Shown: piece after piece, positions 41,441 through 52,848 of the stretch
How positions within the stretch are numbered: position 1 is the first letter of the stretch
Layout of the letters: each line of letters starts with the position of its first letter
Source of the DNA: Candidatus Marinacidobacterales bacterium
GTDB taxonomy: Bacteria > Acidobacteriota > Vicinamibacteria > Marinacidobacterales > DATDRI01
DNA length: 64,000 nucleotides
Assembly: GCA_965226495.1 (NCBI GenBank)
Contig: OZ245365.1
Span: 4,864,001-4,928,000, forward strand
Reading direction: 5' to 3'
Made by a program: the position numbers and the translations under genes
The notes under the pieces: generated by a model
The model's database searches: none
What the model was told of the DNA's origin: nothing
The model's input: the letters and a program-made list of their open reading frames with translations, nothing else

Positions 41441-41642
41441 CCGACTCGCGGCCGTGGTGCGAAGAATCCCCAACCTGCGCTGGTGGATCGTAGCCCTTCT
41501 TTTCCTGGCCACGGCCATCAGCTACATCGAATCGCTAGACCCTTGCGTCGTCGCGCCGACGTTGCGGGACGAGCTAATAGGGATCTCCAACTGCGGCTAA
41601 GCCCGCATCCTCTCCAGCTTTCTCCTGGCCTACGCGGTCATG
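41437..41642 (+). pseudogene. N-terminal fragment of an MFS (ExuT-like) transporter, garbled
   Basis: IPNLRWWIVALLFLATAISYI...VVAPTLRDEL...ILSSFLLAYAVM across shifted frames. Confidence 0.65.
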
Positions 41643-41940
41643 AAGGGGTAGTCTCTGTAACTTGGTACCGGGGGGGCGGCATTTCTAGAAGTACCTAAGC
41701 GGCGGTACCGGATTGGCGGGCGGCTGGCGGATGACGCTCGGTTACTCTACTGAATCCCCAACCTGCGCTGGTGGATCGTAGCCCTTCTTTTCCTGGCCAC
41801 GGCCATCAGCTACATCGAATCGTACCCTTGCGTCGTCCCGTCGAGCGGATCTCCAACGGCGATTTGAGCCATTTATCGTAAGGCCCAGCGGGGTAATGTT
41901 ACTCTACTTCGTATCCCGTCCGGACGGCGATTTGAGCCAT

Positions 41941-42746: not shown

Positions 42747-42959
42747 CTACCTTTTCTTCTTCTGGGCACGGGCCTTTGCTTCGCGGGCGGTCTTGGCGGC
42801 GTGTTGCTTTTCTGTAAGAAGTTGTAGGTTGGGAACCCTATCTGATCCACCGTCTTCAAGCGGGACTTTGTGGTCTACTTCCTTTCCTTTCGGAATCTTC
42901 GTCAAACCCTTCTTCTCCAGAAATCGCTCTACAACCTTTGGATCACGCTTGTTCGGCAT
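42747..42959 (-). CDS. Small HNH endonuclease-domain protein (70 aa)
   Basis: EVDHKVPLEDGGSD-VPNLQLL---QHAAKT motif. GGGAG RBS before 42959. Confidence 0.85.
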   Translation of the reverse strand: MPNKRDPKVVERFLEKKGLTKIPKGKEVDHKVPLEDGGSDRVPNLQLLTEKQHAAKTAREAKARAQKKKR

Positions 42960-43692
42960 GATGACTCCCTTCGTTTCTAAGGCTACCCCCCTGCCGGGCT
43001 TCGCGCAAGAAGACCCGGTACCTGAGAATCGCCGGAACCTCCCGCGTAGCATGGCGCGAGTCCAAGATCGGGAACGCCCGGTAACGTACCAGATCGCCGG
43101 GGCGCTGCCGGCGGGTGCTCCCTGACCTAAGGTCAGGGTCAGGCTGTGTTACAGGGGTTTCGATTTCGTGAAAAAAGGACCCAGCCGCCCCGGGGCGGAC
43201 ACACCATGTGAACCGGGAACCCCCTGGGCAAAGCTAGGCCGCTGAAACGGACCCGAGCGTCGAGAACTGGCGGTCCCTGCCGCCGCCTCTAGCTCGGAAA
43301 TGATTCCGTGTCGGCATTCCAACTATTAGACCCTAGTCGGCCGAAAAAAACGGTGATTTCTACGTTGGGGTTTACCTCACATTCTGTTAGGGGGAATTCC
43401 CTACGATCACTCCTCGCGTGGGTCGACGCGCAGTCGTCGGAGGCAGCGTGACGATCCCCAAGGTTCCTAAATCCAGGAACCCCTGCACCGCCGCACCCGC
43501 CCATCGAGGCGGAATTACATGATTACATCCTCGCCCGCGCCGCCCGGCGCAAGTGGCGGAGGTTCGGGTAGGGGGTCCCCGGGCCGCGGCGTCGTCAATG
43601 CTAACCTCTGGTAAAGTATCGGACCAATTGGTCCTATTCTTTTCGGGCTGTCCTACCGTCGTAGGGGCGCCCCTCGCTGCGAGCAAACCCCC

Positions 43693-43724
43693 ATTTCGAT
43701 CGCGCAAATTTGCGCGATCGAAAT
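43693..43724. repeat. Perfect 32-bp palindrome
   Basis: ATTTCGATCGCGCAAA|TTTGCGCGATCGAAAT. The core GCAAATTTGC recurs at 43731-43740. Confidence 0.95.
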
Positions 43725-43863
43725 CATTCGGCAAATTTGCCTCTTGATTTTCGGTTGTTCCGATCGCGGGTAGGGGTTCGCGTCCCGCGCTGCGAGCTTC
43801 AAAACCCCCCCGCTTAGCACATTCGAAGCATAACATCAAGCAAAAGTAGCCTCTGTAACTCGC

Positions 43864-43936
43864 TGTGTTATAATAGGTTACTAAGTTTCTTCAAAAGTCA
43901 AGAACACTTGACTTTTTAGTGTTTTTGTAGTATAAT
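43864..43936 (+). promoter_or_regulatory. Strong sigma-70 promoter(s) with operator-like inverted repeat
   Basis: TTGACT(43908)-17 bp-TATAAT(43931). Second extended -10, TGTGtTATAAT, at 43864-43874. Inverted repeat AAAAGTCAAG-aaca-CTTGACTTTT (43893-43916) covers the -35. Confidence 0.8.
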
Positions 43937-44095
43937 GCCTGCGAACAAAAAATCAATCCTTAGTTTCCTTTCTTGGTGATACTGCCGGCGGGGCTACGTA
44001 GCCCCGCCGCGCGTCATTGTTTCACCTCGAAAGTCGAAGCGTTATCAAGAAAGGTCCCAGAATATGAGAACCACCAAAAAACCGGAGATCCTCCG

Positions 44096-44689
44096 ATGTT
44101 ACAGGTAGTGATCCCGAGCCCTAACCTCCCTATCCCTCACTTCCCGCCGATGCCGATGCCGTTCCGCCGGCCGCCCCGCAAGGATCCGCGTCCGTATATA
44201 CCCCCGCTGCCCGATGGGGGGCGGGGTGATTTCGTCCCCGTCCCGCAGGTTGAGCCGCGGAATTCGGAGGCGGAACCCCAAGCGGCTGCGGAGCTACTCG
44301 ATCTCGAAGTCAGGCGCACATCCGAGCGCGATAGAAAGCGGCGCTATCGCATGCAGCGCCGCCTCGCTACGGGCACCGACCGCCCTCCCCTGACGCCCAT
44401 ACAGGCCCAGCGGGCTCGGATGTCCACGTTCGAGTGGACCCGGAAGAACCCCGAAAAAAAAGCGGCTCAGAACAGGCTAGCGGCTCGCCGACTGGCGGAG
44501 ACGTACGAGGGGCATCCTATCCGGCTAATTGAAGGCTTCCCCACATCGAGGGAAGTTGAAGGGCCTCCAGTTGAGCCTTTAACCAGATTCGAGCGGGATA
44601 ATTTGATGGCTAAATTTTTCCCATCTTGTAATCCGCAAACTGGCCGGATTACAAACCATTTACAAGAATCATTCACTCTTAAACACTGA
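44096..44689 (+). CDS. Hypothetical protein, proline-rich N-terminus and basic helical region
   Basis: Part of ORF 43973-44689. ATG at 44096 follows GGAG. First ORF after the strong promoter. Confidence 0.55.
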   Translation: MLQVVIPSPNLPIPHFPPMPMPFRRPPRKDPRPYIPPLPDGGRGDFVPVPQVEPRNSEAEPQAAAELLDLEVRRTSERDRKRRYRMQRRLATGTDRPPLTPIQAQRARMSTFEWTRKNPEKKAAQNRLAARRLAETYEGHPIRLIEGFPTSREVEGPPVEPLTRFERDNLMAKFFPSCNPQTGRITNHLQESFTLKH

Positions 44690-44940
44690 CACGAGGGGGT
44701 TTACTGTACTATGAAGGCATCTTGTAATCTTGTAACCTGTAATGTGGCTTCCTATAGGGTAAGGGCAAGATACGGTCCCATCCCGTCCCACCACCCCCAA
44801 ACGGGACCGTATCTGGGATTAGTAGTCTATATAGTTATTACAAGATTACAAAATTACAAGATACTATAACTAACAGATAACAACGGATTTACCTCGTAAA
44901 CATCTTGTAAATGAGGATATTACATGAATACAAGATCAAC
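44620..44940. repeat. Origin-like iteron cluster (consensus ATTACAAGAT) in inverted arrangement around a 12-bp inverted repeat
   Basis: About 13 copies. ATCTTGTAATCTTGTAACCTGTAAT (44719) faces ATTACAAGATTACAAAATTACAAGAT (44837). Central AGATACGGTCCC...GGGACCGTATCT. Confidence 0.75.
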
Positions 44941-46373: not shown

Positions 46374-46835
46374 ATGGATAACGTTAGAATAGAATACCCC
46401 CCGGAAACGGCGGAAACGGCGCCCCTAGTTTGCACGAGAATTGCGGACGCGGTTAAACTAAAAGTTGAGCATGCGCAACTGGCGAAGTGGCTCACGGATC
46501 TTGCAGAGCCCCACGTGAAAAAGCATCTCCCCGCGTGGAGGGTCGAAGTTGCAGAGTCGATCACGTCTAAGCAACTCAAAAGAGAATGCCGCGCGTTGAC
46601 TCTCGGTGGCCCGAAAATCATTAAGTTATCGATGTCGGCCCTCGGCAAGTTAACCCGCGAGCAAGTCGAAAACATAATCATGCACGAGATCGCGCACGGG
46701 CTCACACATGACGCGGGACGAGCTACTCGCTTCCATCACGGCCCTGCGTGGCAAGATGCCGCGAAGAATCTGGGGGTGAAGTTTGATACCCGCGATCTTG
46801 TTTTTTCGGATTCTCTTAATATGGGGTTGAAGTAG
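46374..46835 (+). CDS. SprT-like zinc metalloprotease domain protein
   Basis: IIMHEIAH...HHGPAWQDAAKNLG matches the SprT HExxH...HG-W signature. Start at 46374 after the preceding stop. Confidence 0.8.
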   Translation: MDNVRIEYPPETAETAPLVCTRIADAVKLKVEHAQLAKWLTDLAEPHVKKHLPAWRVEVAESITSKQLKRECRALTLGGPKIIKLSMSALGKLTREQVENIIMHEIAHGLTHDAGRATRFHHGPAWQDAAKNLGVKFDTRDLVFSDSLNMGLK

Positions 46836-46839
46836 AATT

Positions 46840-47560
46840 TCAAAGAGACTCACCGCTGCGAGCACTTTGTGATCCAGAAGGATTACAAGACTGAAGCCCA
46901 GGTTTAGGCACCGTGTGGTGCTAGCGTCACCGCCCATCCCAAGTTGGCGGAAATAAAAGTCGCGCCCGATAAAGTTAATGTGCTTAAGGTGTTGTTCACT
47001 TCATTCGCCTATCAATGGTCGGGTCGAACCGCCCGATAGGAAAGAGGTGATCAACTGGTCCGAGGTCCGAGGTGAGAACCCTTGGTTAGGTAAACTTGGT
47101 GATAGGGCGCACCGCTTGCCCAAGAGCTGCCAGCGGTGCATAACCCGTGATTTCGAGGGGGCGTAAACCCCCTCGAAACATTTTAACAAAACATTCTCCC
47201 CCCCTCCCCAAGGGATAAGGCTCACCCGCGACGGGTGAGCCTTAACTTTGGGGCGCGGCGCTCGGCTTGAGCCACGCCCTCGATCAACTGTATTTAGCCA
47301 CAGCGAGGGCGTGTGCCCGCCAGCGTTTGCAGCGTCGAGCCTGCGGGTGTCTGTGCGCTTGAAAGGGATAGGCACGCCAAGAATTTAAGAACGATTTTAG
47401 AAACGCCGGGGGCTCTCTTCCACCCCGGCTAGGGCACACTCCGATTGCCTCGGAGTTGTGCCCGAGGGGATTGGGTGGGTTGGGAACGGGATCACCGTCG
47501 GCCCTCTCCGCGGGGACGCGCTCCCTCCCCCCCGGCCCCTCATCGGACTGCGAGAACGGC
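46840..47560. ncRNA. Candidate large structured non-coding RNA or ssDNA structure
   Basis: No credible ORF. Strong stems at 47109-47139, 47151-47178, 47216-47244, 47273-47313, 47405-47429 and 47432-47463. Confidence 0.45.
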
Positions 47561-47803
47561 GACACTTGACGTTAGTGTTAGCTCGAAGCGAAAAAGAAAA
47601 AAAGATATTTAGTAATACGGTTGCCCTCAACTCGAAGCGGTAGGGACTCGAAAACCACGGAGGGGGGTGGGTGTCTACGCGAGCCCGGCCAGTTTTACAC
47701 TTTGCCGCCACTTTTTTCGAGATATATCAGTAAAAATAATGGTGTCGCGATTTTTCAATCGCGCAAAACCCCCGAAAATCAGGGGAGATAGGAGCGAAAA
47801 CGA

Positions 47804-48055
47804 ATGATTTCCAAGGAAAAGGCATTAGAAAGCGCCCTCTGTCATCACGACAGTCCCGAGCACCGGCTGATGGCCTGCTGGCAGTGTAAAACCGGATACG
47901 GAAATCGAAAACCGGAAGCCAAGTGCCGATCCGCGTTGGTTTTCGGGGGGACCTTCATAACGCCCGAAGGCGAGATGCCGATCTGCTTCGAGTGTAACAA
48001 AGTCGAAGAAAAACGGCGAGAGATGGCAGAGCAAGAGCGATATGGCAAAAAATAA
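47804..48055 (+). CDS. Small Cys-rich (zinc-finger-like) hypothetical protein
   Basis: CHH...H...CWQC...C...CFEC. AGGAG RBS. Confidence 0.65.
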   Translation: MISKEKALESALCHHDSPEHRLMACWQCKTGYGNRKPEAKCRSALVFGGTFITPEGEMPICFECNKVEEKRREMAEQERYGKK

Positions 48056-48479
48056 AGTCGGACGCCCTCGCAAGGGCAGCAAGGTCGATTTCGAGGCGGT
48101 GAGGGATCTCGCGATCCGCGGCGTCGAGCACGCCGATATCGTCGAGCACCTCGGGATCCATGAGCTTGTGCAAGTACAAGAGGCTAGCGTCAAGGTTCGA
48201 GAGACTGTGCGAGCCGGCCACGCGCAATTCCGGATCGCTATACAAAAGAAGCTCTATTCGGAGGGGGTTCTCGAAGGCAAAATTTCCAGCCTAAGAACGC
48301 TTGCGGAGAATTGGCTCGACAGATATGGGGACGCCGCCCCGAAAATTGACGAGGCAGGGATCGTCGAGGAGATCGCCTCCATCATGCAGGCCAACGCCGC
48401 GCTTCACAAAAAACACCACGCCGAAGAACCTTGCCACCTTGCCGGCTGCGGGACTTGCCGAGAACTACATGGGAACTAG
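48042..48479 (+). CDS. HTH protein resembling a phage small terminase subunit
   Basis: N-terminal VGRPRK followed by HTH-like VRDLAIRGVEHADIVEHLGI and helical IQKKLY...G...W. Pattern resembles TerS families; resemblance judged by eye. Confidence 0.5.
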   Translation: MAKNKVGRPRKGSKVDFEAVRDLAIRGVEHADIVEHLGIHELVQVQEASVKVRETVRAGHAQFRIAIQKKLYSEGVLEGKISSLRTLAENWLDRYGDAAPKIDEAGIVEEIASIMQANAALHKKHHAEEPCHLAGCGTCRELHGN

Positions 48480-48831
48480 AAAAAACAAACCAAGCAAAAC
48501 CTCGCAGCCTCGTCCGCGAGGAACTGTGGTCAGCCGAGTATCCGAAGCCCTCGGCGCTTTTTTCGGCGGCGATCTCGCGGATATAACGATCACCCTCGCG
48601 GACGGCTCGCAGATCAAAGTTACGGCGGCGGAGGTAATCCAGCGCGATCAACGTCGAGAACAATTCGAGATCGAGATCGACGAGCCCTTGCGGCTGCGGC
48701 TACTCGAAGCCCGCCGTCAGCACTTCCGAAAACACCACCCCGAAGTTTTAGGATTATCTCGCGGCGAGCCGGTTGACTCTGTGTTCGTCGGCACCTTGCA
48801 AGAATTTTTCCAGCGGCGACGCCGCCGCTAA
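48469..48831 (+). CDS. Hypothetical protein
   Basis: ATG 48469 overlaps the end of the preceding gene. Part of ORF 48301-48831. Confidence 0.6.
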   Translation: MGTRKNKPSKTSQPRPRGTVVSRVSEALGAFFGGDLADITITLADGSQIKVTAAEVIQRDQRREQFEIEIDEPLRLRLLEARRQHFRKHHPEVLGLSRGEPVDSVFVGTLQEFFQRRRRR

Positions 48832-49247: not shown

Positions 49248-50903
49248 ATGAAAGCCGCAATTTATGCACGAAAATCCACAGCTCAGAACGTATCTGAAGA
49301 TGCCAAGTCCGTCACGCGGCAGATCTCAAGGGGCAAGAAATTCATCGAATCAAAGGGCTGGAACCATGCCGGTGACTACGTTGATGATGCCACGAGCGGC
49401 GGATCGTTGGATCGTGAGGGTCTAAACAACCTATTTCGGGATGCAACAGCGGGCAGGTTTGATGCGGTCGTGTTCTATGACCTAGACCGCTTCTCCCGTG
49501 CCGATGCTATCGACACCCTAGTTAAGCTTCGGGATTTAACAAAACTTGTAGATGTTTGGGAGTATGGGAACGGCCAACAACTGACGGTTGGTGATCTCCA
49601 GAGCATTATGATTCACTTCGTGGCATTCAGCAATCAACAACAGCGAAAATCCGCTAGCAAAGACACCCGGGAGAAGATGCAGACAGCAGCCAGCGAGGGT
49701 CTTGTTACTGGTAACAAGATCTACGGTTTTGACAATATTGGGCCAAGGGGAAAACGGCAGCGGGTGCCGAATGAGAAACAAGCCGTTATCGTCCGGGAGA
49801 TCTTTGACCGCTACTCGCAACGCGAAGGACTAAAGGCAATCGCACATATTTTGAATGATCGGGGTATCCCCTCCCCTAATCAGAGACAGAGCGGTTGGTC
49901 TCCCAGCACTGTCCGCTGCATTCTCAAAAACAGGATCTACCGGGGTGAAGTTATCTATGGACGTTCCCGCCGATGTGACGAGCAGGATTTACCAGAGCAT
50001 CTTCAGGGACTCCGAAAAGAACCGCGTGTCTGTGTTGATGAATCAAATTGGATCATTACGAACATGGATCCGCTGGTTGATCCCAAGACATTCGATCTTT
50101 GTGCCGCACGTTTTGAATCTCGTAAGCAGAAAAGCGGCCAGCGGAGAGCAGCCCGAAACGTGAGACACCTACTGAGCGGGTTACTAACTTGCCCCTGTGG
50201 CGCTTCATTGGAAGCCGTCAAGAGTGGGCAGCGGAAGCAATCGTATTACGTTTGTAGTCGGAGACGCCGAAAGGGCGCTGCGATGTGCTCGAACACGATC
50301 CGGCTGGAAGTAGAGAAGACAGACGCGATCATTCTCGATGAACTAGAAAACAGTGTGCTTAGTCCTAAGTTTGTATCACGGATCTTGAATGAAGCCCTCT
50401 CAGACGGGGAACCCGCTACCCAGCTGGAGGTGGAGCGGGAGCGGCTCGTTTCGGAAATCGGGAATCTGACGAAGGCTGTTGCCATCGGAGGCGGCGATAT
50501 CCCGGAGCTAGTAGCAGCCCTTCGGGAGAGAACGAAGGCACTAACCGCCGTTGAGGCGAAACTAGCAGCCCGGACAGAGAGACCGGATCGGAAGCAACTC
50601 CGGGAAGCCGTCGAGCAGAGGTGTTCGGAGTGGCGGGAGGTTCTCCGCTCGAACGTAGAAGCGGGAAGGGCGCTCCTAAAGTCCCTTGTGGGGCCGCTGG
50701 AGGTTCATACACCGCCACCGAAGGAGCTAGCCGACAAATATGCTTCCTGGTCGGCTGATGTGAAGCCGGAAGGGGTAGCCCTCGAAGTGAGTACTTCAGT
50801 TGGTACCGGGGGCGGGGATCGAACCCGCACGAGGTTTCCCCCAGGGGATTTTAAGTCCCCCGCGTCTGCCATTCCGCCACCCCGGCAAGAATGTAGTCAA
50901 TAA
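49248..50903 (+). CDS. Large serine recombinase (resolvase + recombinase + zinc ribbon + coiled coil)
   Basis: YARKST catalytic Ser, DRFSR, YGF, W-PS-VR-IL-N-IY-G, LLSGLLTCPCG...YYVC...C. RBS AAAGGAGGTGATC. Frame runs through att into the antisense strand of tRNA-Leu. Confidence 0.95.
   Translation: MKAAIYARKSTAQNVSEDAKSVTRQISRGKKFIESKGWNHAGDYVDDATSGGSLDREGLNNLFRDATAGRFDAVVFYDLDRFSRADAIDTLVKLRDLTKLVDVWEYGNGQQLTVGDLQSIMIHFVAFSNQQQRKSASKDTREKMQTAASEGLVTGNKIYGFDNIGPRGKRQRVPNEKQAVIVREIFDRYSQREGLKAIAHILNDRGIPSPNQRQSGWSPSTVRCILKNRIYRGEVIYGRSRRCDEQDLPEHLQGLRKEPRVCVDESNWIITNMDPLVDPKTFDLCAARFESRKQKSGQRRAARNVRHLLSGLLTCPCGASLEAVKSGQRKQSYYVCSRRRRKGAAMCSNTIRLEVEKTDAIILDELENSVLSPKFVSRILNEALSDGEPATQLEVERERLVSEIGNLTKAVAIGGGDIPELVAALRERTKALTAVEAKLAARTERPDRKQLREAVEQRCSEWREVLRSNVEAGRALLKSLVGPLEVHTPPPKELADKYASWSADVKPEGVALEVSTSVGTGGGDRTRTRFPPGDFKSPASAIPPPRQECSQ
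50801..50886 (-). tRNA. tRNA-Leu (anticodon TAA)
   Basis: GCCGGGGTGGCGGAATGGCAGACGC...CTTAAAA...GGTTCGATCC...CCGGTACCA with long variable arm and encoded CCA. Confidence 0.97.
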
Positions 50904-52749: not shown

Positions 52750-52848
52750 CCCCCTCACCCTACCCTCTCCCCCAAGGGGGAGAGGGAATAACGGAGGGAA
52801 GCCAGCATTCATGGCCCTCACCCTACCCTCTCCCCAGAGGGGAGAGGG
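52750..52848. repeat. Two tandem REP-like elements CCCTCACCCTACCCTCTCCCC...GGGGAGAGGG
   Basis: Copies at about 52750-52788 and 52815-52848, each ending in a GC hairpin. Confidence 0.8.

Follow-up and report, generated by a model that had tools for sequence, protein, structure and literature searches.

A 968-nucleotide non-coding gap in an island at tRNA-Leu

The window analysed here is a stretch of 64,000 nucleotides (nt) from Candidatus Marinacidobacterales bacterium (assembly GCA_965226495.1, contig OZ245365.1), and all coordinates are those of the window unless stated otherwise. It contains a 9.1-kb island at a tRNA-Leu gene with a large serine recombinase, and within this island lies a 968-nt gap (46836-47803) between a SprT-like zinc-protease gene and a cysteine-rich open reading frame (ORF). 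The SprT-like gene (46374-46835, + strand; Pfam PF10263, E 9e-09) starts after the stop of a 290-amino-acid (aa) ORF. The first gene past the gap is the Cys-rich 83-aa ORF (Cys83; 47804-48055, + strand), which has two CxxC pairs, and next to it stands the gene for a 145-aa helix-turn-helix (HTH) protein (48042-48479, + strand) of a rare family that is weakly like phage small terminases. The gap parts two gene sets, namely an operon of the promoter at 43908 that ends at the SprT-like gene, and the operon of Cys83, the 145-aa HTH protein and the recombinase. Best explained as a composite intergenic control region of an orphan integrative island, the gap is unlikely to be a single RNA gene.

An initial annotation of this DNA had seen no credible ORF between the SprT-like gene and the Cys-rich ORF, and this holds when judged by codon usage, Pfam and PHROGs. 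On a log-likelihood codon-usage score trained on 2,114 long ORFs of the same genome, five of the six gap ORFs tested are negative (-0.03 to -0.12 per codon); the sixth, a 61-aa ORF with a GTG start, scores +0.076 per codon, and the genes of the island score +0.01 to +0.17. The three or four longest gap ORFs have no match in Pfam or PHROGs.

The middle 460 nt of the gap contain seven stable hairpins whose sequences are unrelated to one another. All six stems picked out in the initial annotation were recovered at or near the positions assigned to them there: an inverted-repeat listing gives hairpins at 47109-47139, 47151-47178 (11-base-pair (bp) stem), 47405-47429 and 47432-47463, and the other two lie at 47216-47244, where a 13-bp stem is nested in 47206-47253, and at 47273-47313, where a 10-bp stem has an inner stem. 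The stems are G+C-rich, 7-13 bp long and for the most part perfect Watson-Crick pairs, with loops of 3-6 nt in four of the six hairpins and of 9-21 nt in the remainder. From left to right, the 5′ part of the gap (46836-47099, + strand) is weakly structured, its first hairpin (about 46866-46890) having one ATTACAAG box at 46882-46889; core A (47100-47330) has four strong hairpins (47109-47139, 47151-47178, 47206-47253 and 47273-47313); and core B (47331-47560) has the hairpins at 47405-47429 and 47432-47463 and a G-run (47464-47478) that pairs with a C-run (47527-47541). The 3′ part (47561-47803, + strand) is rich in A/T and unstructured and forms the leader of the downstream operon; it has a small hairpin (47746-47763), an AGGAG sequence 9 nt before the ATG, and 9-15-nt motifs in common with the non-coding stretch to the left. 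G-runs and C-runs alternate in the gap (47464-47490, 47196-47210, 47521-47541 and 47659-47673), and 47464-47490 fits a G-quadruplex pattern (at least four GGG runs with short spacers), which may be no more than an effect of base composition.

The initial annotation had proposed a comparison of folding energy with dinucleotide-preserving shuffles on both strands, and in the core the energy is far better than that of the shuffles. With 20 shuffles per strand, the complete gap has z-scores of -5.98 (+ strand) and -7.44 (- strand). At 47100-47330 z is -7.2 for + strand RNA, -7.1 for - strand RNA and -7.1 for the + strand with DNA parameters, with none of 200 shuffles as good; for + strand RNA it is -3.3 at 47331-47560 (1 of 200 shuffles as good), -2.0 at 46836-47099 (9 of 200) and -0.1 at 47561-47803 (86 of 200). 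Among 71 windows of 150 nt between 43001 and 48400, z below -3 is confined to 47126-47350 and 43601-44125, and coding windows lie between -2.9 and +2.4. The hairpin run of about 700 nt (46840-47560) first described at this locus thus stands for 47100-47560, a strong part of about 460 nt rather than 700, because 46836-47099 folds weakly. The hairpins are real and well above chance, over less than the range originally assigned to them. The two strands have folding energies of -184.1 and -183.8 kcal/mol, and G-U pairs make up 11 of 127 and 6 of 115 pairs, respectively (pair span up to 120). Since both strands fold equally, as RNA or as DNA, the sequence does not tell the functional strand or molecule.

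A genome-wide census of perfect hairpins (stem of at least 10 bp, loop of 3-25 nt) counted 389 in the 6.34-Mb genome. The island has the highest density in the genome, with 9 in 9.2 kb against about 0.56 expected, and a count of nine is reached by no genome windows except those that overlap the island. Three of these hairpins fall within 163 nt inside the gap, and about 0.06 would be expected per 968 nt. Triplets within 300 nt occur at four places in the genome, two of them in the island and at least one of the other two consisting of copies of a repeat like repetitive extragenic palindromes (REP). Members of this REP-like palindrome family (CCCTCTCCCC-N3-5-GGGGAGAGGG) are scattered over the genome, in the window at 52763-52786 and 52826-52848 and at genome positions 327088, 4542121, 4550732 and others; in the form CCCTCTCCCC-N-GGGGAGAGGG it is unrelated to the hairpins of the island. 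Repeated palindromes of the REP type or of the type of miniature inverted-repeat transposable elements (MITE) were ruled out for the gap, which is single-copy, with no second copy of its DNA in its own 6.34-Mb genome.

Known RNA families and control signals in the gap

The search against Rfam (cmscan) that the initial annotation had also proposed places the gap in no Rfam family. At gathering scores, Rfam 15 gives three matches in the whole window, all of them tRNA, and with the threshold relaxed to E 10, 46500-48100 yields six matches at chance level, to miRNA and frameshift models, the best of which is mir-185 (24.4 bits versus a gathering score of 60; E 0.093). Membership of group I/II introns, GOLLD, ROOL, HEARO/omega RNA, C4/CI RNA, RNAI, Acido-1 and Acido-Lenti-1 was rejected, with no match near the gathering score.

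A scan of both strands found no promoter-like site inside the gap. A scan for + strand terminator-like sites in the gap, including the interval from the SprT-like stop to the hairpins, found none, and terminator-like sites inside the gap are confined to the - strand (47215-47197). The 10 nt after the three perfect gap hairpins contain 4, 3 and 1 T, and a canonical intrinsic terminator was rejected, in that a G+C-rich stem-loop is present but a U-tract directly after the stem is absent on the transcribed strand. The missing U-tract is the local norm, because perfect hairpins here rarely precede T-runs: 12% have at least five T or A in the flanking 10 nt, versus 9% at random places. An iteron origin in the gap was rejected as well, no repeat family having more than three loose copies and the sole tandem repeat being one of 7 nt in 2.4 copies. 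A whole-genome search for the motif ACACTTGAC-N-TTAGTGTT (operator/-35, 18-20 nt) gave exactly two copies in the 6.34-Mb genome, both on the + strand, at 43904-43923 and 47562-47579. The former overlaps the -35 box of a consensus promoter, and the latter opens the last, unstructured quarter of the gap; it may serve as an operator or as an activator-dependent promoter, or be a relic.

These results bear on the large non-coding RNA that the initial annotation had put forward. Its structural side stands, as the structure beats shuffles and has no Rfam match; one large RNA gene is nevertheless disfavoured, because the structure is strand-symmetric, no internal promoter was found and the gap is composite. 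P4 CI RNA and ColE1 RNA I/II are RNA-based control regions of mobile elements, and the core (about 450 nt) might in the same manner give rise to a free-standing structured RNA or a sense/antisense pair that controls the island, for instance as an on-switch for the downstream operon. Such an RNA would fit the z of -7.2 over 231 nt (0 of 200 shuffles as good), the nested stems, bulges and multi-branch layout of the fold, the lack of coding potential and the hint from a contig of sequencing run X6, discussed below, that a block at 46847-48778 moves with the downstream genes; a sense/antisense pair would also suit the equal folding of the strands. It is doubtful, however, in view of a gap with no promoter-like site on either strand, few G-U pairs, a best Rfam match of E 0.093 at 24 bits versus 60, no gap homologue found for covariation, and no run on record as RNA among those listed that hold the gap. 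A more elaborate version is slightly more doubtful still, namely that a new large structured RNA or sense/antisense pair, restricted to this lineage, makes up the 460-nt core and, with the 145-aa HTH protein and a small zinc-ribbon protein as partners, would set a switch between maintenance and packaging or excision in an undescribed family of small satellite-like tRNA-gene islands. Should the core prove to be an RNA gene, a mobile element would have yielded a new large structured RNA.

The island, its proteins and their relatives

The left end of the island (41662-41679) is an 18-nt remnant like the 3′ end of tRNA-Leu, forming a direct repeat with 50800-50817 (89% identical), and at its right end lies the integration target, tRNA-Leu(taa) (50801-50886, - strand; ARAGORN and Rfam tRNA). 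The large serine recombinase (49248-50903, + strand) matches Pfam Resolvase, Recombinase and Zn_ribbon_recom and the PHROG 95 integrase (E 3.5e-90); its ORF crosses the whole tRNA-Leu gene in antisense, and its last 30 codons or so are host DNA. The consensus of 28 recombinase homologues also ends in a tRNA-antisense-like ...GFEP... tail, which suggests that the whole recombinase clade integrates into tRNA genes with an ORF spanning the junction. The G+C content is about 0.60 outside the island and falls to 0.51-0.57 across it. At the left border, an exact 71-nt duplication (41464-41534 and 41752-41822) was observed, and a 157-nt piece (41741-41897) that is present in the window is skipped by the contigs of all four metagenome runs; this piece may be a tandem duplication peculiar to this assembly or strain.

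Besides the recombinase, credible family matches were obtained for an HNH endonuclease (42747-43052) and the SprT-like protein (Pfam, PHROGs, NCBIfam and PADLOC), and eight of the 11 cargo ORFs match no credible family. No paralogues of the island proteins were found elsewhere in the same genome, and long-range 13-nt complementarities inside the island are at about the chance level (an estimated 0.65 expected per 9.35 kb). A second non-coding stretch (43053-43972), whose ORFs look non-coding by codon usage, has its own hairpin cluster, promoters and a perfect 32-bp palindrome (43693-43724). Windows of 150 nt at 43601-44125 give z of -6.4, -4.3, -6.9 and -3.5, and 43600-43850 on the - strand gives -4.7 with none of 200 shuffles as good. 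The promoter P_R (TTGACT-17-TATAAT; 43908-43936, + strand) has 11 of 12 consensus matches and its -35 box lies in a 24-bp palindrome (43893-43916); a weaker leftward promoter site is also present in this stretch. Farther on, 12 ATTACAAG-like boxes (44625-44934) in both orientations, three direct, three inverted and the rest scattered, are arranged around a hairpin at 44770-44812. The window has 31 such boxes versus 18.5 expected, and the cluster of 12 adjoins A/T-rich DNA upstream of a 191-aa ORF; on its sequence, this cluster is the leading candidate in the island for an iteron origin or an array of operators.

The hairpins in the intergenic region of filamentous phages and in the leading regions of plasmids serve as single-strand origins or promoters; the f1/M13 intergenic region comprises about 500 nt of non-coding DNA with consecutive hairpins of different sequence, and ArdC-type proteins of leading regions carry a SprT-like domain. 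A single-strand DNA origin, which the initial annotation had offered as its other possibility, or an array of single-strand promoters whose hairpins form when the island is single-stranded, would accord with a non-coding run of unrelated stable hairpins (z -7.1 with DNA parameters), with the top perfect-hairpin density of the island and with the SprT-like protease gene adjoining the gap. However, no supporting gene came to light: no HUH/rolling-circle Rep, relaxase, single-strand-binding protein or Zot-like/filamentous assembly ATPase was recognised among 11-17 ORFs by Pfam, PHROGs, NCBIfam and PADLOC, although a novel Rep might be encoded among the eight cargo ORFs of no credible family. The iteron-like boxes moreover point to double-strand, theta-type replication elsewhere in the island, and a single-strand origin in the gap appears very improbable.

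The 145-aa protein belongs to a very rare family, as an exhaustive search of 1.84 billion representatives gave 18 remote relatives (30-44% identical), making 19 proteins at E 0.001 or better; a word-based search of 5.8 billion clusters found no relative of Cys83 or of the 145-aa protein except themselves. The 145-aa protein has no match in Pfam or PHROGs and no PDB sequence match below E 0.1. Its AlphaFold2 model (20 sequences; mean predicted local distance difference test score 81.8) has a helix-turn-helix followed by long helices, and the first matches of the model in BFVD are phBC6A51-type homeodomain and small-terminase entries (E 0.008-0.04, probability 0.98-1.00). No significant PDB fold match was found by Foldseek or VIA-align, the best VIA-align Z being 5.3, with the Sf6 small terminase at Z 4.0 and rank 33. 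A small-terminase-like role is thus a lead suggested by the predicted model.

Among 400 other genomes of the class, the 145-aa protein has two solid matches (G034 and G480) and nine weak ones, one of which, when read by eye, looks like a LuxR-type response regulator; viral contigs searched with this protein gave one weak locus. The relative in G034 is found in a small island beside tRNA-Thr, together with an AlpA-like gene and an adjoining small CxxC...CxxC protein. That in G480 belongs to an island of 9.3 kb flanked by two copies of tRNA-Arg, whose other genes include those for a tyrosine integrase, an AAA_25 ATPase and an S49 peptidase. Both whole genomes have the family member in a small island by a tRNA gene (L090, 9863-10333; L103, 9464-10048, - strand). 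The spacer upstream of the G034 homologue is unstructured (z -0.16), and that upstream of the G480 homologue, with about 165 nt and one hairpin, is not comparable to the gap.

It is tempting to consider on these grounds that the gap acts as DNA, as a cis site that is most plausibly a pac or cos site used by the small-terminase-like 145-aa protein in a phage-satellite-like life cycle, with the palindromes as protein-binding or cruciform DNA. The gap is located directly upstream of the operon with the 145-aa protein, for which BFVD gives the terminase likeness (E 0.008-0.04); the stems are mostly perfect Watson-Crick pairs in strands that fold equally as RNA or DNA; the island contains an HNH endonuclease; and a remote homologue resides in the 9.3-kb tRNA-Arg island with its integrase, AAA_25 ATPase and S49 peptidase. 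Protein sites are plausible for at least two further palindromes of the island, namely the one at the -35 box (43893-43916) and the inverted ATTACAAG boxes (44626-44654). The large non-coding region of PLE, a satellite of Vibrio cholerae, provides a precedent, since it is described as holding an origin and a putative pac site, the pac site of the helper phage lying in a long (489-bp) intergenic sequence (PMC11417361). Against this, the terminase likeness is weak, with no Pfam, PHROGs, PDB-sequence or significant PDB fold match, and Pfam and PHROGs revealed no gene for a large terminase, a capsid or a portal in the island. The gap matches neither a phage record nor a viral contig (two hairpin patterns), has no second site in its genome, and is unlike the spacers upstream of the two solid homologues. 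In addition, one protein cannot bind all the gap hairpins, because their sequences all differ. A DNA-level site is therefore regarded as unlikely, although less so than the other alternatives to the reading preferred below. Should its function be that of a barrier or a packaging site, the gap would be a cis element of an ordinary type, and what is unusual would be the completely orphan island around it. With its high non-coding share, its top palindrome density and a cargo that lacks close relatives, the island would then deserve more interest than the gap, as a lead to mobile elements in a phylum that has been little studied.

No homologue of the gap was found in any of 40 relatives, in phage records or in plasmid records. 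Two gap-hairpin patterns had no match in viral contigs, and one pattern gave 40 loci in metagenome contigs, all unrelated: in two of the 40 the BLAST match is the 27-nt hairpin alone, and tblastn of 11 island proteins found none at these loci. The SprT-like protein was not found in viral contigs and has three weak partial matches (query residues about 81-136) in 400 genomes of the phylum. The recombinase shares no more than 40% identity with its nearest relatives, which belong to assemblies of Acidobacteriota, Gemmatimonadaceae and Nitrospira, and no homologues of the 11 cargo proteins occur around such relatives in 80 genome loci. Of the recombinase-related loci with at least 4 kb upstream, 58 of 60 have 0-3 perfect hairpins there. 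Two outliers (L047 and L075) have 42 and 155 perfect hairpins in 9 kb, which are probably repeat arrays or low-complexity DNA.

In public reads, the gap was found in six DNA runs from three studies, none of the listed runs being on record as RNA, and contigs from four of the six runs, from three studies, cover the island with few differences. Position 43698 reads C for G in three of the four metagenome runs, breaking the 32-bp palindrome, with no partner change among the differences listed. In the contig from run X6, 46847-48778 is unchanged but is flanked by 29 letters before it and 326 after it that disagree with the window, a hint that the gap may travel as a block with the three following genes; the contig may be a mosaic relative of the island with the gap, Cys83 and the 145-aa module, or an assembly artefact.

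The orphan character of the gap and its neighbours, and an island that is non-coding over about 20% of its length, raise the question of whether the palindromes have any function. They might be by-products, recombination scars or decayed sites, that is, fast-evolving junk between the modules of a mosaic element, and the variant at 43698 in the palindrome of the other stretch and the motif at 47562, which may be a dead promoter copy, would agree with this. However, chance and decay do not make three perfect stems of 10-13 bp within 163 nt, and neutral decay would erode perfect stems. Among the 40 of 86 differences listed from the four runs, nine fall in the rest of the island and none in 46836-47803; about one is expected there, so this is a weak argument against a lack of function. 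Absence of function consequently seems rather unlikely, a little more so than a DNA-level site.

A proposed cis-acting array between operons and its known counterparts

The reading that we tentatively prefer, as the most plausible single candidate even though it falls short of being probable, is that the gap carries a cis-acting hairpin array on a read-through transcript between two operons, providing a barrier and 3′-end protection and followed by a separate operator or leader. In the order of preference it is followed by the DNA-level site, by no function, by the free-standing RNA or sense/antisense pair and, last, by the single-strand origin. Since the SprT-like gene is followed by no U-tract terminator, a transcript of the upstream operon would enter the gap. 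There the hairpins would act in cis on that transcript, both as a read-through barrier and as a set of stem-loops that protect its 3′ end, and the downstream operon, with its candidate packaging functions and recombination, would be kept under separate control from the motif at 47562. Transcription through the gap, its direction and its effect on termination, stability or packaging are what we infer here.

Several observations support the cis-acting array. Structure is limited to 47100-47560, with the promoter-proximal 240 nt unstructured, and the rare motif at 47562-47579 is the twin of the copy at the 11/12 promoter. The scan found no promoter-like site in the gap and no + strand terminator-like site before the hairpins, the hairpins are shaped like those of terminators or of protective stem-loops, and the absence of U-tracts is the norm of this genome. 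A second hairpin cluster lies downstream of promoters and upstream of the HNH operon, and the iteron-like boxes of the likely origin are sited elsewhere (44625-44934), with no iterons in the gap.

Other observations weigh against this array. Neither a transcript nor a homologue backs transcription or selection on pairing, and the strand symmetry and near absence of wobble pairs suit DNA palindromes as well as RNA. No gap hairpin has a U-tract, and hairpins alone may not terminate, because mycobacterial RNA polymerase is reported to need one (PMC3993855). The motif at 47562-47579 has no good -10 box and its inner spacer is 2 nt shorter than that of the copy at 43904; with no usable -10 box, it may be a relic. 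Finally, seven hairpins exceed the needs of an insulator.

To compare the gap with known systems, the clusters of terminator or protective stem-loops between the operons of phages and mobile elements, some of them without U-tracts, share with it stable G+C-rich stems in tandem between two transcription units, several short loops and missing U-tracts. The gap differs in having seven stems in a row over 460 nt, and their role in termination or 3′-end protection is putative. The f1/M13 intergenic region is similar as a non-coding run of about 500 nt with consecutive unlike hairpins; by contrast, no filamentous-phage genes were recognised in the island by Pfam or PHROGs, and a single-stranded stage of it would be hypothetical. 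With P4 CI RNA (Rfam C4) and ColE1 RNA I/II, the gap has in common a structured non-coding leader region of a mobile element, in which both strands or internal complementarity could matter, whereas it has no Rfam match beyond chance level and no promoters were found in it. PLE is alike in being a small integrative island with a large intergenic stretch, which in PLE has cis-acting sites (PMC11417361). By contrast, there is no sequence likeness between the two, the word "hairpin" occurs 0 times in the main text of that source, the iteron-like boxes lie here 2 kb from the gap, and a helper phage and packaging are known for the PLE side alone. The gap thus belongs to no described family, and structured intergenic control regions of mobile islands, the kind of element that it most likely represents, are already known.

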